Shown one piece after another: positions 5,513 to 63,529 of a DNA stretch of 64,000 bases. The DNA lies in contig JACOWN010000007.1 in the NCBI GenBank assembly GCA_016176785.1, positions 6,970-70,969 on the forward strand, written 5' to 3'. The translations under genes were made by a program, and so were the position numbers. This DNA is from Parcubacteria group bacterium. GTDB lineage: Bacteria; Patescibacteriota; Minisyncoccia; Phycocordibacterales; UBA2135. Numbering within the stretch: the stretch's first letter is position 1; every line of letters begins with the position of its first letter. Under the pieces are notes generated by a model. That model did not search any database and was not told the DNA's origin. It was given only the letters and a program-made list of their open reading frames with translations.

Positions 5513-6580
5513 ATGGAACTGCAACGCATCAGAGAACGGATACTCCGTTTGCTTTCAAACGATGTCGGCATTGACCTCGGCACGGCGAATACGCTTGTCT
5601 ATGTGCGCGGTTTCGGCATTGTCATTAACGAACCGTCAGTCGTCGCGTTGAACCAAAAGACGGGTCAAGTCGTCGCCATTGGAGCGCACGCGAAACAAAT
5701 GCTCGGGCGCACGCCGGCGCACATCACCGCCGTGCGTCCGCTGATAGACGGCGTTGTTTCCAATTTTGAAATCACGGAGGAAATGCTCGCGTATTTTTTG
5801 AACCGCGTGCACAAACTTTCCCCGCGCTTCATCCGCCCGCGCGTCGTCATCGGCGTGCCGTCGGGCATTACGAACGTGGAAACGCGCGCCGTCCGCGACG
5901 CGACGCGCGCGGCCGGCGCGCGCGAAGTGTTCATCGTTGAAGAGCCGATGGCGGCGGCCATCGGCATTCAACTGCCCATCCACGACCCCGTCGGCTCCAT
6001 GGTGGTTGACATCGGCGGCGGAACAACCGATATCGCGGTCATTTCTTTGGGAGGTATCGTGCAGTCGCGGAATGTCCGTATCGCCGGCGACCGTTTTAAT
6101 GAAGACATCATTTCTTACATCAGGAATGAGTTCAAGATCTTGATCGGCGACCGGACCGCCGAAAGCATCAAAATTGCCATCGGCTCGGTGTTGCCCGGAG
6201 ATGCGCCGGTGGAAGCGGCGATCCGCGGGCGCGACCTGGTGACCGGCCTTCCGCGCGAAGTCATCGTCACCGACACCGACATCAGAGAGGCGATCTCGCC
6301 GTCTATTGCGGTGCTTACGGAGTCCGTGAAGGAAGTGCTTGAAACGACGCCGCCCGAGGTGCTTGCGGACGTCATGACACGCGGCATTATGCTGGTGGGA
6401 GGCGGAGCGTCTCTCGGCGGGCTGACGACGCTCCTTGAGGGTGAGCTTAAAATACCCATTCACGTTGCGCATGACCCGCTGACCGCCGTCGTGCGCGGCA
6501 CCGGCGTCATCCTTGAGCGTATCCACGTCTATCGCGAAGTTCTCATCACGCAGGAGGACGATTTTCCTCCCACCGAATAG
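5513..6580 (+). CDS. mreB: rod shape-determining protein MreB (paralog 2, in the mreBCD-mrdA operon)
   Basis: 355 aa; VGIDLGTANTLVYV, DIGGGTTDIAVISLGG; immediately followed by mreC. Confidence 0.9.
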   Translation: MELQRIRERILRLLSNDVGIDLGTANTLVYVRGFGIVINEPSVVALNQKTGQVVAIGAHAKQMLGRTPAHITAVRPLIDGVVSNFEITEEMLAYFLNRVHKLSPRFIRPRVVIGVPSGITNVETRAVRDATRAAGAREVFIVEEPMAAAIGIQLPIHDPVGSMVVDIGGGTTDIAVISLGGIVQSRNVRIAGDRFNEDIISYIRNEFKILIGDRTAESIKIAIGSVLPGDAPVEAAIRGRDLVTGLPREVIVTDTDIREAISPSIAVLTESVKEVLETTPPEVLADVMTRGIMLVGGGASLGGLTTLLEGELKIPIHVAHDPLTAVVRGTGVILERIHVYREVLITQEDDFPPTE

Positions 6581-9847: not shown

Positions 9848-11317
9848 ATGTCTTCACTAGACGAGATCCAGGGCGATCGCATCAAAAAACTTCGGCTCCT
9901 TAAAGAAGGCGGGATGGACCCGTACCCGTCTTTGGCGCGGCGGACGACCGAGGTCGGTCGCGCGCTTCGCATGTTTGATGCGCTCGCGGGACAGAAAAAG
10001 GCGCTCACCATGGCGGGCCGCATCATGTCGCTCCGGCGGCAAGGCGGCCTCATTTTTTTTCATTTCTTTGACGGAACGGGCACGCTGCAGGCGACGCTTA
10101 AAAAAGACGACGCCGGCGAGCGGCTGTTTTCGCTTTTTGAAAATGCCGCGGATATCGGCGATTTTGTTGAGCTGGCTGGCGTTCTCGGGATGACGCAACG
10201 CGGCGAGCGGACGCTTTTTGCCCGCGCATGGAGAATGCTTGCGAAGAGCATTCGGCCGCTTCCCGACAAATGGCACGGCTTGCAGGACGTTGAAGAGCGT
10301 TTTCGGCGGCGGTATCTTGACCTCGCGATGTCGCCCGAAACTCGCGCGCGTTTTCTTAAACGGACAGAAATCATCGCCCTTGTGCGCGCGCTCCTCAACA
10401 AAGCGGGATATCTTGAGGTTGAAACGCCGGCGCTTCAGCCGCTTTACGGCGGAGCGAGCGCCGAACCGTTCGTGACGCACCACAATACGCTTGATGTTGA
10501 TCTGTACCTTCGCATCTCCGACGAATTGTATCTGAAGCGGCTCCTCGTCGGCGGTTTCCCGCGCATCTATGAGATCGGCAAGAATTTTCGGAATGAGGGC
10601 ATTGATGCGACGCACTATCCTGAGTTCACCATGCTTGAGTTTTATGAAGCGTACACCGATGCGCGCCGACAAATGCGATTTGTCGAGCGGCTTATCAAAA
10701 CGCTCGCCAAGCGGCTCTACGGCAAGGCGAGCATACGCTTTGACGGAGAGGACATTGACCTTTCGCGGCCGTTCGCCGTCGTGCCGTTCCGCGCGGCGCT
10801 CGAGAAATACGCGCACCTCGCGAAGCCGCTTGAAGCGTCCCGCGACGAGCTCTTTCGCGTTGCGAAAGAGCACGGTGCCGCCGCGGCAGAGGGCGACAGC
10901 CGGGCGAAACTGCTTGACCTTTTATTCAAAAAACTGTGCCGGCGCCATCTGGTTCAGCCGACGTTCGTCACGGAGTATCCCACCGGCTACCTTCCGCTCG
11001 CGAAAGAGAAAAAGCGCATGCGCGGCGTTGCCGACGCGTTCCAGCTCTACATCGGCGGCGTGGAATTGGTCAAGGCGTTTTCGGAATTGAACGACCCCGC
11101 GGAACAGCGCAGCCGTTTCCTCGCGGAAGAGCGATTTCGCACCGCTGGCGACGAGGAAGCGCAACGATTGGACGAGGATTTTCTTGAAGCGATGGAATAC
11201 GGCATGCCGCCCGCGGGCGGCGTCGGCATCGGCATTGACCGTTTGGTCATGGTGCTGACCGATACGAAGAACATTAAAGAGGTAATCCTTTTTCCCGCGA
11301 TGCGGCCGAAACGGTAG
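9848..11317 (+). CDS. lysS: lysyl-tRNA synthetase, class II
   Basis: OB-fold N-domain, class II motifs (FPRIYEIGKNFRNEG, ..GGVGIGIDRLVM..); the ATG at 9848 is preferred over the overlapping upstream start. Confidence 0.9.
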   Translation: MSSLDEIQGDRIKKLRLLKEGGMDPYPSLARRTTEVGRALRMFDALAGQKKALTMAGRIMSLRRQGGLIFFHFFDGTGTLQATLKKDDAGERLFSLFENAADIGDFVELAGVLGMTQRGERTLFARAWRMLAKSIRPLPDKWHGLQDVEERFRRRYLDLAMSPETRARFLKRTEIIALVRALLNKAGYLEVETPALQPLYGGASAEPFVTHHNTLDVDLYLRISDELYLKRLLVGGFPRIYEIGKNFRNEGIDATHYPEFTMLEFYEAYTDARRQMRFVERLIKTLAKRLYGKASIRFDGEDIDLSRPFAVVPFRAALEKYAHLAKPLEASRDELFRVAKEHGAAAAEGDSRAKLLDLLFKKLCRRHLVQPTFVTEYPTGYLPLAKEKKRMRGVADAFQLYIGGVELVKAFSELNDPAEQRSRFLAEERFRTAGDEEAQRLDEDFLEAMEYGMPPAGGVGIGIDRLVMVLTDTKNIKEVILFPAMRPKR

Positions 11318-12091: not shown

Positions 12092-12176
12092 TGTGGATAA
12101 ACCGGTAAAAGGACCGTCCTTTTCGCAAAAAGGACGGTCCTTTGAGGGAGTTATCCACAGGCGGTTTGTGTGGATA
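12092..12176. repeat. bipartite repeat locus A: three TTATCCACA-type boxes flanking an inverted pair of AAAGGACSGTCCTTT palindromes
   Basis: TGTGGATAA at 12092, AAAAGGACCGTCCTTT at 12107, AAAAAGGACGGTCCTTT at 12127, TTATCCACA at 12151, TGTGGATAA at 12168; the same bipartite motif recurs at 38264, 48994 and 53858. Confidence 0.6.
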
Positions 12177-20056: not shown

Positions 20057-20117
20057 TGAAAGATATTATCACGTGTTTGTCGGAACATGTCGTTTCAACA
20101 AGCATTCTGACGGCAGA

Positions 20118-20241
20118 CACTTGGCAGGAGGGCGGTAATTTGTTATACATAACGCAGGAAGTGAAAGTCCAGTGTGCACTGGGCTTTGTCCCTCGACAAG
20201 CTCAGGGACAATCCCAAACCCAAGAAAAGGAGGAAGGACAA
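20118..20241 (+). promoter_or_regulatory. promoter plus conserved structured 5' leader of cassette copy 1
   Basis: TTGGCA-17-TGnTATACA extended -10; leader with hairpins CCAGUG..CACUGG and GUCCCU..AGGGAC; AAGGAGG RBS; about 90% identical to 21450-21639. Confidence 0.45.
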
Positions 20242-20955
20242 ATGGGAAAGCTGTGCAAGGATCAGAGGGAAACCCTGATTGGCAAGTTGGCCGCCCTGTT
20301 CTCAGGGGTTACGGCCGACGAGATCGACGAAGTGGTGGACGCCACCAAGACCCTTCTCACGAGTGAGGCCAAGGAAGCCAAGAACCGCGAGCGCCTGGAG
20401 ACCTTTGATGGTCAGGTCAAGACCTTGATCGACAAGGGCTACCCCGAAGCGGCCGGCATGGAGAAGGATCAGTTCCTCGGGTATGTGAACCCCCTCAGGG
20501 ACAAGTTCGAGATCGGCGACATCATCGTCATCCCCGAGCGGATCGTCTCCATCCCCAAGCAGATGTCGCTGGTGAAGCTCGCCGGCAAGACGGGCTATAC
20601 CCGCCTCAACCTCGGCGTGCTCACGCAAGCCGATGGTGTCGAGACCCCGAATGTCCCGTACCTGATTCGCGATGTCGAGGACGGGAGCGCCTGTCGGAAC
20701 ACCTCTCCCGGCGACTGCGTCAAGCAGTTCAAGAAGCAGGGACGGTTCGGACTCGTCACGGAGGAAGGGATCGCCATCGTCACCCACAAGCCGGAGACGC
20801 TCTGCGATCACTACATCGATCTCCCCGGCTCCCGCTATTATGGCTCGGGCCATGTGCCGCTCTTGTGGCTCAATGTCGGTCGGCCGAAGCTCGACTACAA
20901 CTGGGCTGTCAGCGACATCTCGAAGTGCGGTTCCGCGTCCTGCGGTAGTCGCTAG
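20242..20955 (+). CDS. hypothetical protein, cassette paralog A (unknown family)
   Basis: 237 aa from the ATG behind the AAGGAGG RBS; GC3-rich codon usage unlike neighbouring genes; paralog of 21640-22375; C-terminus ...GSASCGSR. Confidence 0.6.
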   Translation: MGKLCKDQRETLIGKLAALFSGVTADEIDEVVDATKTLLTSEAKEAKNRERLETFDGQVKTLIDKGYPEAAGMEKDQFLGYVNPLRDKFEIGDIIVIPERIVSIPKQMSLVKLAGKTGYTRLNLGVLTQADGVETPNVPYLIRDVEDGSACRNTSPGDCVKQFKKQGRFGLVTEEGIAIVTHKPETLCDHYIDLPGSRYYGSGHVPLLWLNVGRPKLDYNWAVSDISKCGSASCGSR

Positions 20956-21026
20956 GACTTTGGACTTTGGGCCCTTGCCGTGCCCGCCGTAGGCGAGGCT
21001 CGCCAAAGGCGGCAGGTCGCGTCACG

Positions 21027-21068
21027 CGACACAACGAGGGCAGTTCGATGCATCACGCACGATCTGCC
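21027..21068 (+). terminator. intrinsic terminator after cassette copy 1
   Basis: GGGCAG ... CTGCCC stem followed by TTTTTTT. Confidence 0.5.
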
Positions 21069-21174
21069 CTTTTTTTCTATCTTTTTATTCAAAAAAGCGG
21101 TAAATAAAAAACATGATGTTTGTTGCGCACAAGAGAGAAACCGCACTATACTTTCGTAAGACGTACAAGGAGGG

Positions 21175-21408
21175 TCACTCATCGCGTGTGAGCGCATGTG
21201 GATGATGCTTCGGACGTGAGGAGCGCGTCGGAATCGCTCCATAACCGCGTCTCTTTGCTTTCGCCACCCACTTTACCACTGCGGAGTGGGTGTATCCGAA
21301 ATGTCTCGCCGCCTTTCTCGTCGACCACCCGCGACGGACCAACTCCACCGCTTGTCCCCGAACTTTTGGCAGTTCGGGATTTAGTGCTATATGCCATATG
21401 CACTTCAT
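21175..21408 (-). mobile_element. truncated transposase N-terminus (HTH plus ..SRPKHHP linker; IS481/IS3-integrase-like), IS remnant
   Basis: 77 aa: ..VELVRRGWSTRKAARHFGYTHSAVVKWVAKAKRRGYGAIPTRSSRPKHHP, then stop; lies exactly where the similarity between the two cassette copies breaks (21178). Confidence 0.5.
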
Positions 21409-21449
21409 GCTAACCCCCAGGGTGGTTCCAAGCTATTGAACCATTACGG

Positions 21450-21639
21450 ACACTTGACAGGAGGGCAGTAATTTGTTACACGTAACGCAGGAAGTGAAAG
21501 TCCAGTATGTGCTGGGCTTTGTCCCTCGACAAGCTCGGGACAATCCTGAGCGAAGTCGAAGGATTGACAACGGAATAATCTCCGCCTACGCATAAAGCTA
21601 CGGCGGACAGGCCAAACCCAAGCAAAGGAGGAAAGACCG
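21450..21639 (+). promoter_or_regulatory. promoter plus conserved structured 5' leader of cassette copy 2 (about 70-nt insertion relative to copy 1)
   Basis: TTGACA at 21453; same leader hairpins as copy 1 with compensatory substitutions; AAGGAGG RBS. Confidence 0.45.
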
Positions 21640-22375
21640 ATGGGAAAGCTGTGCACGGATCAGTTGATCGGGAAGTTGGTCGCCCTCTTGCGAGAGGCCG
21701 ACTCGGAGGAGTTCGATGACGCGGTGACGCAGGCCAAGGGTCAACTCACGGCAGAGTCCAAGCAGGCCAAGCGGAACGACCTCGAGAAGCTCTTCGACGC
21801 TCAGATCGCGACTCTCAAGGATCGCGGCGTCCCCGAGCAGATCGTGGAGATCCTCCAGAACCAGAAGGGTTCGGTGGTGAAGAAGGCGAGCGAGTTCGGT
21901 GGTGAAGAAGGCGAGCGAGATGGCGATCGGAGACGGCAACATTCCGTTTCTCCCCGTCATCCCCCGCTCCCCTCGGAGCCCCTACGACCTCATGGCCATG
22001 GTGCGAAACGGTTCGAAGGTGGGCTACGCCTACCTCAACCCGACGCAGATCTCCGATGTGGTGGACGCTCCCCAAGAGCCCTACTACATCTACGATGTCG
22101 AGGACGGCAACATCACCCGTGGCAAGTCGCCGGAAGACGCCCTAAAGATCTTCAAGCAGCAGAAGCGGTCTCCGCTCACTGCCGCCGAGGTCATGGCGCT
22201 CGCGACTCACACGGATGTGCTCTCGCGGCACTATGTGTGGGCTACCGGCTCCCGCTATGAGTTCGCCGCCCGGGTGCCGAATGTCTATCTGGGCGGCGGT
22301 CGGCCGAAGCTCGGCTGGGACTGGGTCGGCGACTCGCTTGGCCACTGGGGTTCCGCGTCTTGCGGTAGTCGCTAG
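21640..22375 (+). pseudogene. cassette paralog B, disrupted by a frameshift
   Basis: ORFs 21640-22260 and 21899-22375 are in different frames but together align with paralog A (..YIYDVEDG..GSRY..GRPKL..GSASCGSR); the frameshift coincides with the 25-bp tandem duplication. Confidence 0.55.
21871..21919 (+). repeat. 25-bp perfect tandem duplication (tcggtggtgaagaaggcgagcgag x2)
   Basis: Seen directly in the sequence; the length is not a multiple of 3, so it shifts the frame of paralog B. Confidence 0.7.
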
Positions 22376-22497
22376 GACTTTGGACTTTGGGCCCTTGCCT
22401 GCCCGCCGATTTTTTCCCCCCGCCGTAGGCGAGGCTCGCCAAAGGCCAAGAGAGAAACCGCACTATACTTTCGTAAGACGTACAAGGAGGGTCACTA

Positions 22498-22908
22498 ATG
22501 GCGCGCAGGCCGAAGCAATCAGAAGTTGAAAAACGGCGCCGCGAGGCGTTGCCCGACCTCCCGTATTTTGACCGCGCGACGCTCGTGGAAGCGGGCGATG
22601 TTTTTTCGGGATACGCGGACCGATGGATAGGCCAGTATAAAGAAGGATATTGGGAGCCGCATCATATCCTGGCCCGACTCGTGGAAGAAGAGGTCGGCGA
22701 GCTGTCGCGCGAGGTGAACCACGAATTCGGCCCGAAAAGAAAAAAGAAAAGTGAGATCGCCGGAGGAGTTGCCGAAGAACTGAGCGACATTCTGTTCACG
22801 ATCGTCTGCCTCGCGAACTCCCGGGGCATCAACCTCGGCGCTTGCTTTGCGGACACATTGGCGAAGTACAATAAACGCGACACCGGGCGGTTCAAAAGAA
22901 AGAAGTGA
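22498..22908 (+). CDS. MazG-like nucleoside triphosphate pyrophosphohydrolase
   Basis: 136 aa; EEVGELS...AEELSDILFTIVCLAN MazG/NTP-PPase helical motifs; preceded by a TATACT -10 and an AAGGAGGG RBS that are also present (orphaned) after cassette copy 1. Confidence 0.7.
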   Translation: MARRPKQSEVEKRRREALPDLPYFDRATLVEAGDVFSGYADRWIGQYKEGYWEPHHILARLVEEEVGELSREVNHEFGPKRKKKSEIAGGVAEELSDILFTIVCLANSRGINLGACFADTLAKYNKRDTGRFKRKK

Positions 22909-25583: not shown

Positions 25584-25922
25584 ATGAAGTCTGACATACA
25601 CCCGACCTATTACCCGAACGCCACAGTAACCTGCGCGTGCGGCAATTCTTTTACTGTGGGTTCAACGATGGAAAAAATAGAAGTGGAAATTTGCTCCGCG
25701 TGCCATCCGTTCTATACGGGGCAGGGGAAGATTTTGGACACTGCGGGGCGCGTGGAGAAATTCAAGGCGCGCCGCGCGACCGCAGAATTGCGGAAGGGAG
25801 ACCTTGCAAAAAGCAGGGAAAAGAAGGAGGCAAAAAAGGCAAAAAAAACAGAGAGTAAAAAAACAAAAGCCCCCGCGCCCAAAAAACAAAAAACAAAAGC
25901 AAAAACAAAAACCGCGAAGTGA
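25584..25922 (+). CDS. rpmE: ribosomal protein L31 (zinc-binding form) with a lysine-rich tail
   Basis: [10 protein letters not shown]...CxCG...[10 protein letters not shown]. Confidence 0.9.
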
Positions 25923-25940
25923 CCGCTTCGCGGTTTTTGT
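25910..25940 (+). terminator. intrinsic terminator of rpmE
   Basis: 9-bp stem ACCGCGAAG/CTTCGCGGT enclosing the stop codon, followed by TTTTTG. Confidence 0.6.
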
Positions 25941-25943
25941 TGC

Positions 25944-25985
25944 CGCCGTCTATGCTTAAATTCTTAAGAATTTAAGCATAGACGG
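25944..25985. repeat. 42-bp perfect palindrome centred on CTTAAG
   Basis: gccgtctatgcttaaattctt | aagaatttaagcatagacggc, exact reverse complements. Confidence 0.7.
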
Positions 25986-26125
25986 CGAGACACGCGAACG
26001 GAACAGCCCGCTGAAACTGTGTCTTGACAGAGTCGTGTATGTCTGATATCGTATAATCCGGCACAGTTACCTCTACCTCCCCGCAATGTCGCGGGTAACC
26101 ATCAGAATAGGAAAGGAAAGAAGAC

Positions 26126-37197: not shown

Positions 37198-38265
37198 ATG
37201 CCAACACGCAAAGATTTCTACGAAATACTCGGGATCGCGCGTGACGCGACGAAAGACGGCGTTAAAAAAGCGTACCACCGTCTCGCGCGCAAATACCATC
37301 CCGACAATAAAGAAACGGGCGATGAGGCGCGTTTCAAAGAGATTAGCGAAGCGTATCATACGCTTTCTGACGATAAACGGCGCGCGGAGTATGACGCGTA
37401 CGGCAACGTTTTTGCCGGCGCGGAAGGATTTTCCGGATTCGGGCCGTTCGGTGGAGCGCAGGGCATGGAGTTTGACCTCGGCGATATTTTCGGCGAGTTT
37501 TTCGGCGGCTTGGGGGGAGGAGAACGCTCCCGCCGCATGCGGCGCGGGAGAGACATAACGATTGACGCCGAGGTTTCTTTCGCCGAAGCCGCGTTTGGCA
37601 CAGAGCGTTCATTTTTGCTCGGCAAAACAGCGCAGTGCGAGGCGTGCCGCGGCACGGGCGCGGAACCGAATACGGAATTGGCCGTGTGCGCGGCGTGCAA
37701 CGGCCAGGGCCGCGTGCACGAGACGCGCTCGTCGTTCATCGGCACCTTTTCAAGCATCCGCGAGTGCGACGCGTGCCGCGGTGAGGGCCGCGTGCCGAAA
37801 GAGACGTGCCATGTATGCCGCGGCATGGGAGTGGTTAAAAAACAAGAAGAGGTAACCATTACCATCCCCGCCGGTATCGAAGACGGCGGCGTCATCAAGA
37901 TCGGAGAAATGGGAGAAGCGGTCCAGCGCGGCGCATCGGGCGATCTCTATGTCAAAGTGCATGTTGCGCGGCATCCGATATTCCGCCGCGAAGGGCACAA
38001 TCTCATCATGACGCTTGACATTAAACTTTCCGATGCGCTCCTCGGCGCGACGTATCAGATCGGCACGCTTGATGGCGCGACGCTCAAATTGAAGATACCC
38101 GCCGGCGTTACGTTCGGAGAGATATTGCGCGTGAAGGGGAAGGGCGTGCCCATTGAGCGGGGCAAGCGCGGCGACCTCCTGGTTAAACTGAACGTAAATC
38201 TGCCGACCGCGCTTTCGCGCGCCGCGAAGGAACTTTTTGAGAAGCTCCGCAGTGAAGGTATTTAA
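37198..38265 (+). CDS. dnaJ: molecular chaperone DnaJ
   Basis: J domain (DFYEILGI....KKAYHRLARKYHPD), G/F region, four CxxCxGxG zinc repeats. Confidence 0.9.
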   Translation: MPTRKDFYEILGIARDATKDGVKKAYHRLARKYHPDNKETGDEARFKEISEAYHTLSDDKRRAEYDAYGNVFAGAEGFSGFGPFGGAQGMEFDLGDIFGEFFGGLGGGERSRRMRRGRDITIDAEVSFAEAAFGTERSFLLGKTAQCEACRGTGAEPNTELAVCAACNGQGRVHETRSSFIGTFSSIRECDACRGEGRVPKETCHVCRGMGVVKKQEEVTITIPAGIEDGGVIKIGEMGEAVQRGASGDLYVKVHVARHPIFRREGHNLIMTLDIKLSDALLGATYQIGTLDGATLKLKIPAGVTFGEILRVKGKGVPIERGKRGDLLVKLNVNLPTALSRAAKELFEKLRSEGI

Positions 38266-38327
38266 GGACGGTCCTTTTTGAGTTTATCCCCAGAAAACTG
38301 GGGATAAACTCAAAAAGGACCGTCCTT
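38264..38327. repeat. bipartite repeat locus B: 64-bp perfect palindrome (30-bp arms, 4-nt centre)
   Basis: AAGGACGGTCCTTTTTGAGTTTATCCCCAG aaaa CTGGGGATAAACTCAAAAAGGACCGTCCTT; the left arm starts inside the dnaJ stop codon. Confidence 0.7.
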
Positions 38328-48987: not shown

Positions 48988-48993
48988 CCCACC

Positions 48994-49026
48994 TGTGGAT
49001 AACCAAGCCCAAGGACGGTCCTTTTT
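48994..49026. repeat. bipartite repeat locus C (TGTGGATAA + AAGGACGGTCCTTTTT) upstream of mraY
   Basis: TGTGGATAA at 48994-49002, AAGGACGGTCCTTTTT at 49011-49026. Confidence 0.6.
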
Positions 49027-49080
49027 GGGCCTTATTTTGCGCACTTTGAGCGGCAAAAAAAACGTGTTATATTCAAACCA

Positions 49081-53849: not shown

Positions 53850-55196
53850 ATGTTTTCTGTGGATAACCTGTGGAAAAACCCGAAAAGGACCGTCCTTTTT
53901 GCCGGGGTTGCCGCGCTCGCGTTTTTGGGATACTTGGGATATGCGCCAGGAAATGCGCCGGCGGTCTTTTCTGCGGGGCTTATTGATGAGTTGCGTTCAA
54001 AGATACAGGAACGGAACAGCGAAATTGAGAAATTGGAGCAGGAAATCAAACGCTACGAAACGGAAATCACCACCATCAACAAAGCAACGCGGACGCTAAC
54101 GTCAACGGTTGCCGAAATAACGACAACGGAACGGAAACTTCGCACGGACATTACGCTTACGGAGCGAAAAATCAACACCGCCGCGCTTACGATACAAGCG
54201 CTCTCCGATGAGATCGCCGACAAAGAAGCGCGCATCAAAACCAACACCGCCGCGATCGGCGAGATCGTGCGGCGGATGCATGAACTGGAGTCGCGCTCGC
54301 TCATAGAAATATTTCTTTCCCGCGACACGTTTTCAAGTTTCTGGGACATTGTGGAAAATCTCGGGCGTCTTGAAAAAGGGGTTGCGGCAAACGTTGCCGA
54401 GCTTGAGTTTCTGAAGGAAGGATTTCTTACGGCGCGTTCCGAACGCGAGGCGGAAAAAACGCGGCAGACAAAACTCCGCAACCAACTCGCGGACCAAAAG
54501 GAACTTGTGGCGGCGAGCCGCGCACAGCAGGAAAAGCTCTTGCGCGAAACCAAAAACAAAGAAACGCTTTACCAAAATCTTCTTGAGGAACGCCTCGCGC
54601 GCAAAGAAGCGCTTGAGTCCGAGATCGCGGCGTTTGAAGACCAGCTGCGCGTTGAAATTGACCCGTCCAGTTTGCCGCCGACGGGGATGGGGGGCGTGCT
54701 TTCATGGCCGCTCGCAAGCGTTACCGTCACGCAGTATTTCGGCAACACGCCGTTCGCGAGCAAAAATCCACAGATCTATAACGGCGGCGGGCACAACGGC
54801 ATAGACCTGCGCGCTTCCGTAGGAACGCCCGTTTTGGCGGCGGCAAACGGCATCGTGGTGGACACGGGCGACACCGACACTGGCTGTTACGGCGCTTCTT
54901 ACGGCAAATGGGTACTGGTGAAGCACTACAACAACCTCGCGACCTTGTATGCGCACCTCTCGCTTATTCGCGTCGCGGCGGGGGAAGAAGTCAGGACCGG
55001 CGACTTGGTCGGATACAGCGGCAACACCGGATATTCAACGGGGCCGCACCTTCACTTTTCCGTGTATGCCGCTTCGGCGGTCCGCGTTACGGACGCATAC
55101 AAAAGCAAAGTATGCAAAACGAACCTCAAACTCCCGCTCTCGCCGCGAAACGGATACCTCAATCCGCTGTCGTATCTGCCGGCACTTGATAATTAG
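53850..55196 (+). CDS. M23-family peptidase with N-terminal TM anchor and long coiled coil (EnvC/LytM-like)
   Basis: C-terminal LytM domain (GxHNGIDL..., ..YAHLS..., GNTGYSTGPHLHF); about 250-aa coiled coil. Confidence 0.8.
   Translation: MFSVDNLWKNPKRTVLFAGVAALAFLGYLGYAPGNAPAVFSAGLIDELRSKIQERNSEIEKLEQEIKRYETEITTINKATRTLTSTVAEITTTERKLRTDITLTERKINTAALTIQALSDEIADKEARIKTNTAAIGEIVRRMHELESRSLIEIFLSRDTFSSFWDIVENLGRLEKGVAANVAELEFLKEGFLTARSEREAEKTRQTKLRNQLADQKELVAASRAQQEKLLRETKNKETLYQNLLEERLARKEALESEIAAFEDQLRVEIDPSSLPPTGMGGVLSWPLASVTVTQYFGNTPFASKNPQIYNGGGHNGIDLRASVGTPVLAAANGIVVDTGDTDTGCYGASYGKWVLVKHYNNLATLYAHLSLIRVAAGEEVRTGDLVGYSGNTGYSTGPHLHFSVYAASAVRVTDAYKSKVCKTNLKLPLSPRNGYLNPLSYLPALDN
53858..53900. 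repeat. bipartite repeat locus D (TGTGGATAA, TGTGGAAAA, AAAAGGACCGTCCTTTTT) overlapping the 5' end of the M23 peptidase CDS
   Basis: Encodes ..VDNLWKNPKRTVLF.. in frame if the ATG at 53850 is the true start. Confidence 0.6.
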
Positions 55197-56631: not shown

Positions 56632-57078
56632 TCACTCGCTTTTTTTGATGCGCAGCATGAAGCGCGCCGTCCGTTCCCCGCGACGCACGAAAATCTCATA
56701 CTCCCCTATTTCTTTGAGAGGAGACGGCAGGTCTATGTCGCCCGCGTTGAGCTCCATTCCTTTTTCTTGTTTCACCGCCGCCGCGATCTCCTCGGCGTCA
56801 ACTCCGGCAAAAAGATGCCCGCGTTCATTTGCTTTCGCCGCGAGCGTTACCACTCCCCCGTCAAGCGAAACGAGCGCCGCTTCAAACGCCTCTTCCGTTT
56901 TTGCGTGCCCTTGCGCGGCCGCTTTTTTCAAATGCTCAACATTTTTTATTGCAGCCGGTGTTGCATACGCCGCTTTTTTTTGCGGCACAAGAACGTTCCG
57001 CGCATAACCGTCGGCGACCCAAACGACGTCGTGTTTACGGCCGATTTTCGGGACATCGGTCAGAAGAATGAGCTTCAT
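56632..57078 (-). CDS. rplI: ribosomal protein L9
   Basis: MKLILL.DV...G..HDVV.VADGYARN.L.P...A.......I; two-domain L9. Confidence 0.85.
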   Translation of the reverse strand: MKLILLTDVPKIGRKHDVVWVADGYARNVLVPQKKAAYATPAAIKNVEHLKKAAAQGHAKTEEAFEAALVSLDGGVVTLAAKANERGHLFAGVDAEEIAAAVKQEKGMELNAGDIDLPSPLKEIGEYEIFVRRGERTARFMLRIKKSE

Positions 57079-57092
57079 AGTTTAACATCATT

Positions 57093-57117
57093 TTGTTCAA
57101 CACCCGATGTTGAACAA
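57093..57117. repeat. 25-bp palindrome TTGTTCAACACCCGATGTTGAACAA (copy between the ctpA stop and the rplI start)
   Basis: Identical to the copies at 1759-1783 and 58499-58523; followed on the plus strand by TTTTAATTTTAATT. Confidence 0.8.
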
Positions 57118-57125
57118 TTTTAATT

Positions 57126-58409
57126 TTAATTATCGCCTGCCTGCGCCGCGCTCCGTGACGCGGCGGGCGATCCGACCAACAACCCCACCGCCCTTTCCAT
57201 CTGCGGGTCTTTTTTTGCCTCGCGGTCCTTTTCAGTCATTGTGACTTTGTATTGCGGAGTGAGCCCGCTTTTTGAAATTATCGTCCCCTTAGGGGTTTTC
57301 CAATGCGCAACGGTAAGCTTTAAGGATGTATCGGGGGTGATTTTTATTAATTCCTGCACCGACCCCTTGCCGAACGTTTGCTCGCCGACAAGCGTTGCCG
57401 TTCCGTGCTCCGAGAGGGCGCCGGCAACAATTTCCGACGCCGAAGCGGAACCCCCGTCAACAAGAATCGCCATTTTCAGTTTGTCGGTAAAAATATCGTA
57501 CCCCTTGCTCCGATACATGACGTTTAAATCCGCCTTGTGCGGCCCGAAATCTTCCGAGACGACAATGGCTCCTGACGGGAGGAACCAACTTGCGATATCA
57601 ACCGCCGCCTCAAGAAACCCGCCGGGATTGCCGCGCATGTCAAGAATAAGTTTATCGTTGCCGGAAAGGACAAACTCACGGAGCGCTTCACGGAACAGCC
57701 GCGGCGACTGTGCGGAGAAGTTATACAATTTGATGACAAAAACGCCGTCCGGCAGCTCTTCTGTATCAATGGTCGGGATGACGATAACGTCGCGGACGAC
57801 CTTGATCTCAAACGGCTCCTCGCGCTCTTTGCGCGAAAGCAAAAGCGTCACCGTGGTCCCTATTTCGCCGCGGATCAGCCGCACCGCCTTTTCAACGCTC
57901 ATATCGGCCGTAAGCGCATCGTCAATTTTAAGGATGATGTCTCCCGCCTGTATGCCCGCGCGCGCCGCCGGCGTGTTTTTAAGCGGAGCGATCACCGTCA
58001 GGGCCTTGTCGCGAATGCCGATCTCCATACCGACGCCGCCAAAATTGCCGTTGATGTTCTCTTCAAACATGCTGGCATCGGCGGGCGGCAAGAAGACCGA
58101 GTACGGGTCGCCAAGCGACGCCACAAGCCCTTGGATGGCGCCCCAGACCTTGTCTTGAGCCGTAATTTCGGTTGACGTGCCGTTTGCGGGCGTATATTTC
58201 TCGTCAATGGCATTCCATGCTTTCCAAAACGGCGCAAAGTCAATTTTTTCGGACGGCGCGACCGTCGGCGGCATCGTGCCGACGAGCGCGGTGATCTTTG
58301 CGACTTCCGGACGGTTGCCGTAGCCGAAATAGACGCCGGTAATGAACGCGGCGGCAATGATGACAACGGATATGCCGATGAGAACGGGAGTTCTGTTGGC
58401 GCGATACAT
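57126..58409 (-). CDS. ctpA: C-terminal processing (tail-specific) peptidase, family S41, with PDZ domain
   Basis: 427 aa; N-terminal TM segment; ..LILDMRGNPGGFLEAAVDIAS.. catalytic Ser region. Confidence 0.85.
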   Translation of the reverse strand: MYRANRTPVLIGISVVIIAAAFITGVYFGYGNRPEVAKITALVGTMPPTVAPSEKIDFAPFWKAWNAIDEKYTPANGTSTEITAQDKVWGAIQGLVASLGDPYSVFLPPADASMFEENINGNFGGVGMEIGIRDKALTVIAPLKNTPAARAGIQAGDIILKIDDALTADMSVEKAVRLIRGEIGTTVTLLLSRKEREEPFEIKVVRDVIVIPTIDTEELPDGVFVIKLYNFSAQSPRLFREALREFVLSGNDKLILDMRGNPGGFLEAAVDIASWFLPSGAIVVSEDFGPHKADLNVMYRSKGYDIFTDKLKMAILVDGGSASASEIVAGALSEHGTATLVGEQTFGKGSVQELIKITPDTSLKLTVAHWKTPKGTIISKSGLTPQYKVTMTEKDREAKKDPQMERAVGLLVGSPAASRSAAQAGDN

Positions 58410-58498
58410 AGGGACATTATCGCAGAAGCGCTCGTTGTGGTCAAACCCGCTTCACGATATAATGTTACGTGATACGCCGCTACCCGTGTTACGTAAAA

Positions 58499-58523
58499 TT
58501 GTTCAACACCCGATGTTGAACAA
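58499..58523. repeat. 25-bp palindrome TTGTTCAACACCCGATGTTGAACAA (copy in the ctpA/corA divergent promoter region)
   Basis: Identical third copy, 24 nt upstream of the corA ATG and about 90 nt upstream of the ctpA start. Confidence 0.8.
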
Positions 58524-58546
58524 AATAGTAATCGCCGCAATATTTT

Positions 58547-59461
58547 ATGTTCAAAAAACATACCTACGATTCCCTGACCTGGATTGATCTTGAGTCGCCG
58601 ACCAAGGATGACACGCGCGCGCTCATAGAGGAGTTCGGCATCCACTCGCTCGTCGCCGACGAGCTGCTCTCCCCCACCCTGCGCTCCCGCGTTGAAACGC
58701 ACGGAGATTATATTTTTCTCATTCTGCATTTTCCGACCGTTATGCATTCCCACGGGGGCCGCACGGAGCAGGAAATTGATTTTATCGTCGGAAAACATTT
58801 TATCGTTACGGCGCACTACGAACCCGTCGATGCGCTTGATGAGTTTTCAAAGCTTTTTGAGATCAATTCCGTTATCGGCGCGAACGCGGGCAAAATGCAC
58901 GCCGGATTTCTTTTCTTTCATATGGCGCGCGAGCTGTACAAACAGGCGTCCGACGAGCTTGACCACATGCGAAAAGAACTCACCCGCATTGAAGAGAGCA
59001 TTTTTCGGGGCGAAGAACACGCGATGGTCCAGTCCTTGTCGCGCATCGGCCGCAAGCTGCTTACTTTTAAGCGCGCCGTGAGGCCGCACCGCGAAGTGCT
59101 TGAATCGTTTGCGTCAGTCGGCGCAAAACTTTTCGGAAAAGAGTTTGCCTATTATCTTCATGCCATAACCGGCGAACAGTATAAAATTTTCTCCGCGCTT
59201 GAAAGCGACATTGACACGCTTGATGCGCTTCGGGCCACCAACGACTCGCTTCTCTCCACCAAGACGAACGACATCATGCGCGTCCTCACCATCATGGCGT
59301 TCGTCACGTTCCCGCTCGTGCTCGTCACCTCGGTTTTCGGCATGAATACGGCGTATCTTCCCGTCGTCGGTCTGCCGAACGACTTTTGGATCATTGTCGG
59401 TTTCATGGTCGCGGCAACCATCGGCTTTTTCCTCTTCTTCAAATCCAAGAAGTGGCTGTAA
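58547..59461 (+). CDS. corA: CorA-family Mg2+/Co2+ transporter
   Basis: Cytoplasmic N-domain plus two C-terminal TM helices with the F/YGMN motif (FGMNTAY). Confidence 0.85.
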   Translation: MFKKHTYDSLTWIDLESPTKDDTRALIEEFGIHSLVADELLSPTLRSRVETHGDYIFLILHFPTVMHSHGGRTEQEIDFIVGKHFIVTAHYEPVDALDEFSKLFEINSVIGANAGKMHAGFLFFHMARELYKQASDELDHMRKELTRIEESIFRGEEHAMVQSLSRIGRKLLTFKRAVRPHREVLESFASVGAKLFGKEFAYYLHAITGEQYKIFSALESDIDTLDALRATNDSLLSTKTNDIMRVLTIMAFVTFPLVLVTSVFGMNTAYLPVVGLPNDFWIIVGFMVAATIGFFLFFKSKKWL

Positions 59462-62362: not shown

Positions 62363-63529
62363 CTAGGACGACAGGTAATTGAAGAACACGGGGCGGAGTT
62401 GCATCACCTCGGCAAGCCCGTAATCCAAGTCGGCGACGTTCTCCTTATAGCGAAGCGATGAGGACGAATTGCAGTCGTTTGAGGTATTGACGCGGATTTC
62501 ACCCGTCGCGCTTGACCAGCACACGTCATCCTCTATGGTAGTTCCTGTCTCAAGCCCCGTCGCAAACATGTTGCCGTTGACATCAATTTTCATTTTTTCG
62601 GTAAAGGTAATGGTATTGCCCGCAGACCCGCTCCCTGCGGTGCGAAATATGTAACTGGCGGCGCCGTCTAAATAAACCTGTGAAGCGGCGGCGGTTTCTT
62701 TGTAAAGCCATGCGGTACCGTTGTAAAGTGCGTTCTGTCCCAAAAATGTCTCGTCGGAAACCCCCGCCAAGCCCGTCCTGTCGCCTATATCAAGTGCCGG
62801 GGTATTTGTCCACTGGCCATTCGGCACCACTCCGATGCCCAAGACACCAGTGCTTGTAATTCTCACCTTTTCCGCCATGGCTCCGTCAAGCATAGTGGCA
62901 AACACAAGTGCGGAATCACGCGTTGAAGCCGTGGATGTCCACTCTACTTCTTTTGCGGAAAAGACGCCTCCGGCGGTTCGTGAAGCACCCCCCGTATCCG
63001 CGAAAAAGAAACCATACCCGGCGATGCCGTTCACGGAGAATGTCGCGCTCGGCGAGGTTGTCCCAATGCCCAAGTTCCCGCTTGAATCAAGGCGCATGAC
63101 CTCGGTGCGCCCGCCCGCTTGGTGGTTTATGAACGCGAGTTCTGTTCCCCCCGATTCGCGGATTGACGAGATGCGGGATGATTTTGTTGCCGCCGTGCCG
63201 TGGTAGAAAATGAGGTCGGCGGTCGTGTTTTCTCCTGTACTCTTATTCTCTATGATGAGCGCGGGCGGCAGGTTCACGCCGTCCGAGGCGGTGTAGGTGA
63301 GCGCGCTCGTCGTTGCCGCGTGGAGGATGCCGTAGGTTTCCGTTGGTGAGTCAATCGCGATTTTCCCGTTGTCAAATATCGTGAGGATTTCTTTGTTGTT
63401 CGCGTCCGCGATTGCGAGTGTGCGTCCGGTTGAAACGCCCGCGCCGTTCACGGAGAATGTCGCGCTCGGCGAGGTTGTCCCAATGCCCAAGTTCCCGCTT
63501 GAATCAAGAGGTGCTTCCCCCGCGGTCAA
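62363..63529 (-). pseudogene. tail-fibre-like surface protein, central segment with xSGNLGIGTTSP repeats and a truncated S74-like motif before an in-frame TAG
   Basis: 388-aa ORF; DSSGNLGIGTTSPSATFSVNG occurs twice; C-terminus ..SSLRYKENVADLDYGLAEVMQLRPVFFNY resembles the first half of the S74 chaperone motif, then LSS and a stop. Confidence 0.5.
63026..63091. repeat. 66-bp perfect direct repeat, copy 1 (copy 2 at 63443-63508) inside the tail-fibre-like gene
   Basis: gccgttcacggagaatgtcgcgctcggcgaggttgtcccaatgcccaagttcccgcttgaatcaag is identical at both sites; copy 2 coincides with the frameshift. Confidence 0.75.

Follow-up and report, generated by a model that had tools for sequence, protein, structure and literature searches.

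The three identical 25-bp palindromes described here are probably solo REP-like elements, copies of the DNA hairpin cognate to a family of RAYT-like Y1/HUH transposases with a wide distribution in Patescibacteria. They lie in a 64-kb stretch of DNA from a Parcubacteria group bacterium, which we refer to as the window. Sequence comparisons tie the palindrome to a gene for a Y1/HUH transposase of about 220 residues in related genomes.

Three identical palindromes in the window

The 25-mer TTGTTCAACACCCGATGTTGAACAA occurs exactly three times in the window, always in the + strand orientation, and its expected count is 0.00 (100 dinucleotide-preserving shuffles). A first-pass annotation of this DNA had reported identical 25-mers at these three sites and a hairpin with a perfect 10-bp stem and a 5-nt loop. 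Exact matches at all three positions and the predicted fold bear out both statements; as single-stranded DNA the element folds at −8.7 kcal/mol for the top strand and −8.6 kcal/mol for the bottom strand, with z about −5.3 to −5.6. The gene contexts given in that annotation (holB, ctpA/rplI and ctpA/corA) are upheld by the open reading frames and by Pfam, with one correction in that copy 3 lies 23 nt, and not 24 nt, before the corA ATG. The features of the window are as follows.

1350-2057: holB-like gene, a 235-aa ORF matching Pfam DNA_pol3_delta2
1759-1783, + strand: copy 1 of the palindrome, a probable solo REP-like element, in frame inside the holB-like gene (exact match)
57078: ATG of rplI (ribosomal protein L9), a 148-aa ORF ending at 57078
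57090-57122: 33-nt extended unit around copy 2, reading ATT, the 25-mer and TTTTA on the + strand (inverted repeat I3)
57093-57117, + strand: copy 2 of the palindrome, inside the 47 nt that separate the ctpA stop from the rplI start (exact match)
57126-58409, − strand: ctpA-like S41 peptidase gene, with PDZ plus S41 peptidase domains
58494-58526: 33-nt extended unit around copy 3, reading TAAAA, the 25-mer and AAT on the + strand (inverted repeat I3)
58499-58523, + strand: copy 3 of the palindrome, in the divergent ctpA/corA intergenic region (exact match)
58547-59461: corA, an ORF with its ATG at 58547 (CorA)

The window holds no degenerate copies of the 25-mer. The next-best two-arm match has at least 4 mismatches, and the 9-mers TGTTCAACA and TGTTGAACA are confined to the three copies in a scan of the window, such that the distribution of the element here is all-or-nothing. 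All three copies have the same asymmetric centre, CCCGA, and judged by this centre they are direct repeats. The immediate flanks are CCTC/ATTG for copy 1, CATT/TTTT for copy 2, and AAAA/AATA for copy 3. The flanks of copy 3 are the reverse complement of those of copy 2, and the two extended units form a 33-nt inverted repeat (I3) that is 91% complementary.

Copy 1 encodes the peptide LVQHPMLNK in the holB-like protein, within a variable linker that follows the SRLxxI motif. In an alignment with 18 homologs this linker is 11 residues long, versus 11-12 in most of them and more in a few. Because the linker length equals that of the homologs, the copy was not simply added, and we rejected a plain insertion, since there is no net gain in length relative to the 18 homologs.

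Copy 2 is separated by 8 nt from the ctpA stop and by 14 nt from the rplI side. Copy 3 lies 89 nt before the ctpA start (58409). A consensus scan places a ctpA promoter at 58444-58416 on the − strand (TTGACC-17-GATAAT), with copy 3 about 55 nt upstream of its −35 element. The TTGAAC of the right arm was also considered as a −35 element and was rejected, its spacing to −10-like boxes being inconsistent.

The palindrome and a transposase gene in other Patescibacteria

Searches with the arms TTGTTCAACA...TGTTGAACAA and a free centre gave about 60 distinct sites, nearly all of them in Patescibacteria, from 20 loci in species-representative genomes and 66 metagenome loci. The host lineages include Saccharibacteria, Niyogibacteria, Nomurabacteria, Zambryskiibacteria, and unclassified Parcubacteria. 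Exact-arm copies number one to three per genome in these other Patescibacteria, and the arms are identical between distant lineages. The exact 25-mer was not found in the metagenome contig collection, and the arms gave no match in viral contigs. Matches with A/T-only centres (ATAAT, ATTAT) in Proteobacteria and a few others (Castellaniella, Vibrio) resemble an unrelated operator and were set aside.

The centre follows the pattern Y-Y-N-R-R, which in most copies lengthens the stem to 11 bp and shortens the loop to 3 nt. In some copies the symmetry runs through the whole middle (CCTGG, TCGGA, TTCAA, CTTAG). The most frequent centre is CTCGG/CCGAG, and centres within one genome are either the same or mutual reverse complements. 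The CCCGA/TCGGG centre has no instance among the matches in species-representative genomes or metagenomes, and CCCGA is absent from roughly 90 other instances. Since this centre is common to the three window copies and unique to their genome, the copies presumably derive from one another or from one master copy.

The genes next to these sites are unrelated to each other and include alanine dehydrogenase, lepA/prfA, MacB-type ABC operons, recA/ssb, groES, ruvB, and tRNAs. Sites are found after stop codons, in convergent gaps, upstream of genes, and inside long ORFs. About one fifth lie in an open frame inside a real gene, examples being secA, murG, lysS, uvrC, ligA, and genes for glycosyltransferases and an epimerase. 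Within genes the palindrome is invariably read in one or the other of its two open frames, and the resulting peptide is either (F/I/L/V)VQHxxLN(K/N) or xCSTxxVEQ. The C-terminal tail of SecA has two tandem palindrome copies, and in LigA the palindrome is in the linker before the BRCT domain. No GTAG/GTGG tag was noticed in the flanks of the approximately 90 instances listed. Such contexts are not those expected of an operator, of a terminator, or of a repeat confined to the DNA between genes.

Two of the palindrome-containing genes encode homologous 220-aa proteins with a Pfam Y1_Tnp (IS200-like) domain. A tblastn search with one of them identified seven homologs within the palindrome loci that had been fetched, and in six of these the stop codon is followed at 0-12 nt by a palindrome, either perfect or variant; others are upstream of or inside the gene. 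All seven have a homologous stretch near residue 57, which reads FVQHRVLNK where the DNA is a perfect palindrome, and FLETGSFDV or FLKNGYFDF where the palindrome has decayed. As these seven loci had been selected through the palindrome, the test was repeated on genes picked by protein similarity. Four loci on long contigs (L091, L093, L094, and L095) were chosen by protein similarity only and a fifth (L100) was met by chance, so that 5 of the 12 transposase genes examined in all were chosen without regard to the palindrome.

Palindromes occupy three fixed places relative to the transposase gene: about 35-57 nt before the ATG, at nt +171 inside it, and 0-60 nt after the stop. At least 10 of the 12 genes have the upstream copy, which adjoins −10-like boxes, and most also have one after the stop. 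In seven genes with a perfect stem the internal copy is at nt +171, upstream of the HUH motif. All four genes picked by protein similarity have upstream, internal and downstream palindromes, the imperfect ones having been read from the printed flanks. L091 and L094 each have three perfect palindromes, the upstream one starting 52-57 nt before the ATG, the internal one at nt +171, and the downstream one starting 6-15 nt past the stop, with arms TGTTAAACAC in place of TGTTCAACAC. L095 has arms TGTCAAACAC, with perfect internal and downstream copies and an imperfect upstream copy. L093 has a perfect upstream copy with arms TGTCCTAAGC and an imperfect downstream copy visible in the flank; its internal copy is deduced from the codons for FVLSRALD. 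The L100 gene, which is next to a ctpA homolog, has arms TGGTGGACAT and shows an upstream copy and part of an internal one, the gene being cut by the contig end. Overall, six arm types track the transposase genes by lineage.

The transposase family has more than 2000 members, of which the best 120 (57-64% identical to the query) were used here; where organism names on these 120 go beyond 'bacterium', all are patescibacterial. The motif FV[KQ]H[SR]V[FL][ND] is present at the internal site in 70 of these 120 homologs. Among the 70, the variable pair is K-F in 42, Q-L in 12, and mixed in 16. Because AAA/TTT and CAA/TTG are complementary codons, the K-F and Q-L pairs represent compensatory changes, and this co-variation keeps the DNA palindromic within the coding sequence.

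The transposase genes of L091 and L094 are syntenic, in the order UDG, GDH, TsaD, aminoacyl-tRNA synthetase, PrsW, HSP20, glutaredoxin, transposase, enolase, and DHODH. Together with the 57-64% identity, this fits a gene that has probably been vertically inherited, and not an active insertion sequence. No tnpB gene was found beside the transposase gene in L091, L093, L094, or L095. There is no transposase homolog in the 64-kb window, in the 4.3 kb upstream of it, or in L096, and tblastn of the window at a relaxed E-value gave only the palindrome-encoded peptide and a spurious match antisense to gltX. The genome of this organism presumably encodes the cognate enzyme.

The transposase has two motifs that are invariant in the alignment (A2), NHFH (HUH) and YIHRNP (Y---NP), and it matches Pfam Y1_Tnp at 5.8e-08. 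The only NCBIfam match is to the REP-associated tyrosine transposase, at 38.7 and 30.3 bits, below the cut-off of 80. PDB sequence searches gave marginal matches to the ISDra2 and IS200 transposases (E 0.07-0.6). Confidence was low in an AlphaFold model built from 16 sequences (mean pLDDT 57.7, and below 50 for residues 47-65, which include the palindrome-coded peptide), and therefore only the ranking of fold matches was used. In this ranking the top matches of the low-confidence model are Y1 transposases and the best is 4er8_A (E 8e-4), which is E. coli TnpA_REP bound to a REP hairpin. A Y---NP motif characterizes class 2 TnpA_Y1 proteins, to which the REP-associated transposases belong (PMC6006769).

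The ctpA locus and alternative explanations

Copies 2 and 3 lie close on either side of ctpA and its promoter, 8 nt beyond the stop and 89 nt ahead of the start, and the first-pass annotation had raised the possibility that they mark the ends of an inserted or invertible segment of about 1.4 kb. Their flanks do form the 33-nt inverted repeat, and the transposase genes are themselves bracketed by the same palindromes. However, the gene order cysS-(corA)-ctpA-rplI-rpmA is kept in three relatives, L098, L099, and L100, in which the palindrome was not found at the ctpA locus (the nearest ctpA homologs are 64-67% identical). The intervals between ctpA and rplI are as follows.

L098: 14 nt, without the palindrome
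L099: 11 nt, without the palindrome
L100: 118 nt, with a different hairpin inside
Window: 47 nt, with copy 2 inside

Subtracting the 33-nt unit from the 47-nt gap of the window leaves 14 nt, the length of the gap in L098. On the ctpA/corA side the palindrome is absent from L098 and L100, and L098 has a near-identical TTGACC...GATAAT ctpA promoter. In four further assemblies of this organism, which come from other sequencing runs and are at least 99.9% identical, the gene order and orientation are the same and the two copies are present; no inversion at ctpA was seen in any of them, and the orientation of ctpA does not vary among the relatives either. Inversion by site-specific recombination is further contradicted by the centres, according to which copies 2 and 3 are direct and not inverted repeats. 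The conserved order, the palindrome-free relatives, and the constant orientation in the four assemblies argue together that ctpA is ancestral at this position and that the palindromes are probably additions in the lineage of the window. An excisable, inserted or invertible ctpA cassette is thus largely refuted and we regard it as extremely improbable; the bracketing of ctpA by copies 2 and 3 is incidental.

The main rival that we keep is that the palindrome serves the host as a binding site, recognized by a domesticated Y1/HUH protein or by another conserved protein (through autoregulation plus a small regulon, or in a parS-like role) and maintained by selection and not by transposition. The copy upstream of the transposase gene, at its fixed distance of about 35-57 nt and close to −10-like boxes, is operator-like, and it is the exception to an otherwise negative pattern: elsewhere there is no recurrent gene set, no consistent promoter position, and no degenerate variants. 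Identity of the arms between distant lineages recalls parS or CIRCE, and perfect copies without degenerate ones, as well as intragenic occurrence, are also typical of parS. Symmetry through the centre (CCTGG, TCGGA, TTCAA) is what would be expected for a dimer on double-stranded DNA, and the holB copy involves no net insertion. Against this, the solo sites have neither a common gene set nor a fixed promoter position, they are absent from the ctpA locus of the relatives, and the arm sequence changes with the transposase gene by lineage, as in REP/RAYT systems and unlike a universally conserved site. The genome-specific centre found in all copies points instead to copying. We consider a host-function site rather unlikely as the explanation for the window copies, and an ordinary transcription-factor operator, one of the roles proposed in the first-pass annotation, is not supported as the primary role given the unrelated contexts elsewhere, including those inside coding sequences.

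The motif was compared with the sites of LexA, HrcA/CIRCE, NrdR, Rex, the Fur family, BirA, GlnR, and MerR-type regulators and with parS, dif, and integron attC, none of which matches its 10-5-10 layout. The arms bear some likeness to attC cores (RYYYAAC/GTTRRRY) and to parS half-sites, which we judged coincidental once the link to the transposase appeared.

Another possibility is that the hairpin acts chiefly in RNA, as a terminator, a stabilizer of mRNA, or a translational element for rplI and corA. A consensus scan flags copy 2 (on the + strand, followed by TTTTAATTTT) and copy 3 (on the − strand, followed by TTTTACGTAA) as terminator-like, many sites elsewhere are at 3′ ends or in convergent gaps beside other hairpins, and co-option of REPs in this manner is known (PMC3733652). 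The T runs, however, are only on the strands antisense to rplI and corA, and in the sense direction of ctpA-rplI it is AAAATGATG that comes after the hairpin, without a T run. Rfam matched no family in the window, and 16 related loci gave just four tRNA genes. Sites elsewhere are in either orientation and also inside coding sequences, exact sequence and not just pairing is conserved between lineages, and an RNA hairpin does not need the symmetry that runs through the centre. An RNA-level function is very unlikely on this evidence, and the RNA stabilizer of the first-pass annotation is set aside as a primary role.

We return to the reading that we prefer, in which the three 25-mers are solo copies of the hairpin of a Y1/HUH transposase. 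How the hairpin is mobilized is taken by analogy from E. coli TnpA_REP, IS200/IS605, and IS608/ISDra2. The enzyme would bind the hairpin formed on single-stranded DNA and would then cut and rejoin nearby (PMC3479197), such that the hairpin is copied or moved. The CCCGA variant would have been copied in this manner to at least three places in the genome of the window, and extra solo copies would come to be scattered between genes and in frame inside genes. Effects on holB, rplI, corA, and ctpA would be by-products, possibly a 9-residue loop in the holB protein and a hairpin in the ctpA-rplI and corA transcripts. Earlier suggestions of a recently spread mini-element or a recombination site for the 25-mer both agree with a cognate hairpin of a Y1/HUH transposase family; they are also in keeping with the CCCGA centre being exclusive to the three copies, and with two relatives in which copy 2 is missing and the gap is shorter by about 33 nt.

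Comparison with known systems and implications

REP/RAYT (TnpA_REP) 'REPtrons' have reportedly been described in E. coli, Pseudomonas, and Stenotrophomonas, in work by Nunvar in 2010, Bertels and Rainey in 2011, and Ton-Hoang in 2012. Work on REP/RAYT systems has, to our knowledge, dealt almost exclusively with Proteobacteria and a small number of other phyla. Patescibacteria are unmentioned in the REP/RAYT classification papers that we searched, and a literature search found no description of this palindrome or of RAYT/REP in Patescibacteria, nor of a fixed three-site architecture with compensatory codon changes. The system is most likely of the known REP/RAYT kind.

In the E. coli TnpA_REP system (Messing 2012, PMC3479197) and other REP/RAYT systems, a Y1/HUH gene of low copy number is flanked by specific palindromes, one type per gene, and dispersed copies are mostly downstream of genes or in convergent gaps (PMC3337134, PMC6006769, PMC3733652). 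The resemblance to what we describe is close: a short palindrome is dispersed in the genome (three copies in 64 kb here), related genomes have a Y---NP Y1/HUH gene flanked by its own palindrome, the type of palindrome co-varies with the gene, the gene is syntenic between genomes, and the best fold match is 4er8. Intragenic REPs in replication and repair genes, and in-frame REPs in tnpA_REP, are also documented (PMC3733652, PMC6006769).

In canonical REPs the foot of the hairpin bears a guide tetranucleotide, 5′ GT[AG]G (or CGTC), and the stem base is GC-rich (PMC6006769). The Patescibacteria palindrome has no 5′ GT[AG]G guide, and in contrast to the imperfect canonical REP with its GC-rich base it has a perfect, AT-rich stem of 10-11 bp that starts with TTGTT, and a loop of 3-5 nt. 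Lacking both the guide and the GC-rich base, it is therefore not a canonical REP, and these absences, together with an NCBIfam score under the REP_Tyr_transpos cut-off, sit uneasily with the REP-like assignment. The same is true of the copy number, which is a few per genome and not hundreds, of arms that are the same across distant lineages whereas classical REPs are species-specific, and of the holB copy, which brings no net gain in length.

Two of the published TnpA_Y1 groups invite closer comparison. In subclass 2.4 (Bertels group 4) REPs are in frame within tnpA_REP (Quentin et al. 2018, PMC6006769); the likeness lies in a cognate palindrome inside the transposase coding sequence with the frame intact, and in an HUH motif of the type NH[IFV]H, whereas here the internal palindrome has one fixed place (nt +171) and is kept by compensatory codons. 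TIRYTs (subclass 2.1) have terminal inverted repeats with a GGGGWSAS motif, no REP-like hairpins have been found in the subclass, and C-terminal HTH-like domains are described (Di Nocera 2013, PMC3733652; Quentin 2018). They are alike in protein size (about 220-240 aa), in the motifs NH[YF]H and Y[IV]H.NP, in a C-terminal SS motif (WSSYQD here), and in having small repeat families that are sometimes self-complementary; they are set apart by the GGGGWSAS of their published repeats and the lack of REP-like hairpins in subclass 2.1.

The Y1/HUH enzymes of IS200/IS605 elements recognize subterminal hairpins on single-stranded DNA, and miniature hairpin-ended derivatives (PATEs) exist. The elements are multi-copy and nearly identical, often with tnpB; their motif is Y---Q, and their left and right ends differ. 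A Y1/HUH enzyme with hairpins and non-autonomous hairpin-ended derivatives are shared features, whereas here the motif is Y---NP, no tnpB lies beside the gene in the four loci chosen by protein similarity, the same hairpin is at both ends, and the gene, which is syntenic, has diverged (the best 120 homologs are 57-64% identical to the query). Rickettsia palindromic elements (RPE) are, as far as we know, 100-150 bp long and have no known transposase. RPEs and intragenic REPs are similar to the present sites in being in-frame palindromes in housekeeping genes, often those of replication and repair, that encode a short loop or linker peptide (PMC3733652). Unlike RPEs, the unit here is 25 bp (9 codons), and the holB copy at least is without net change in length.

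A more far-reaching interpretation is that the Y1/HUH enzyme is anciently domesticated and vertically inherited throughout Patescibacteria, with its three-hairpin gene, and that solo hairpins are written length-neutrally into loops of essential replication, repair, and translation genes as a form of host editing or marking of single-stranded DNA, not as a selfish repeat. We offer this as a speculation with a rather low chance of being right.

For annotation, the sites in the window should not be read as a regulatory device of ctpA, corA, or rplI. If the REP-like reading is true, it would account for a class of unusual inserts of 9 residues (VQHxxLN or CSTxxVEQ) among the predicted proteins of Patescibacteria, and the palindrome would provide a lineage marker for binning and strain typing. 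The transposase would be a compact Y1 enzyme with a defined 25-nt substrate, testable in vitro. The hairpin would be tolerated in essential genes (holB, secA, lysS, uvrC, ligA, and murG), and very small, streamlined genomes would be maintaining a hairpin-transposase pair with a very regular architecture.

Palindromes in other genomes

In several other Patescibacteria the 25-mer forms part of a composite in which it is flanked on both sides by other elements (loci L002, L006, L009, L019, L020, L035, L041, L045 and L047, all outside the window). On one side lies a GC-rich terminator-like hairpin with a TTTTTAT end, and on the other a conserved motif, ATA(C/T)CC(T/C)GAGCG...GTCGAAGG(G/A)T. The composite is repeated at separate loci within a single genome, JBBTRR (L009, L019 and L020). 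An Rfam search with the composite containing the 25-mer returned no matches.

The arms of the 25-mer are also found around a centre composed only of A and T (ATAAT or ATTAT) at L014, L016, L030, L036, L069, L071 and L078. These loci are from outside the Patescibacteria, and include Castellaniella, Vibrio and other contigs of 33–60% GC. At L014 and L016 the palindrome lies directly upstream of a gene that by eye encodes a putative transporter-binding protein. The A/T-centred palindromes look like an operator unrelated to the 25-mer of Patescibacteria.

At two syntenic loci that carry a Y1/HUH transposase gene with its own palindromes (L091 and L094, positions 10673–10800 in each), a putative tRNA gene recognized by eye abuts the palindrome 3′ of the transposase gene, and this arrangement of palindrome and tRNA-like sequence is found in both genomes.

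Other repeats in the window

A second palindromic repeat family, distinct from the 25-mer, is present at four sites in the window. Its unit consists of a DnaA-box-like sequence (TGTGGATAA/TTATCCACA) followed after 8–14 nt by a 13-bp palindrome, AAGGACSGTCCTT; there are six such cores in the window, two of them in inverted doublets. Two strong palindromes also lie side by side at 25904–25987. These sites are listed here together with the direct repeats, duplications and paralogs.

Repeats and palindromes in the window other than the 25-mer
12092–12164, second-family repeat
38264–38327, second-family repeat, a perfect 30+30-nt palindrome directly 3′ of a dnaJ-like gene
48989–49027, second-family repeat
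53858–53897, second-family repeat, within an M23-peptidase ORF (53850–55196), at its 5′ end
25904–25941, hairpin with a 16-bp stem
25944–25987, perfect 44-bp palindrome, CGCCGTCTATGCTTAAATTCTTAAGAATTTAAGCATAGACGGCG
63026–63091 and 63443–63508, perfect 66-nt direct repeat (family D7), copies 417 nt apart
20116–22503, tandem duplication with a period of ~1.3–1.4 kb (repeat families D2, D12 and D17), 91–96% identity between pieces
337–1350 and ~5540–6560, two MreB-like paralogs (repeat families D1, D5 and D15), 72–75% DNA identity across conserved stretches

Surroundings of the 25-mer in the ctpA/corA gap

Between the ctpA promoter and the 25-mer copy at 58499–58523 there is an additional imperfect inverted repeat, TTACGTGATACGCCGCTACCCGTGTTACGTAA, at 58470–58500. 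Reading of the sequence also reveals a perfect TATAAT on the forward strand at 58458–58463, which is absent from the promoter-scan calls and could be a candidate corA promoter element. If it does serve corA, this copy of the 25-mer would lie within the corA 5′ leader.
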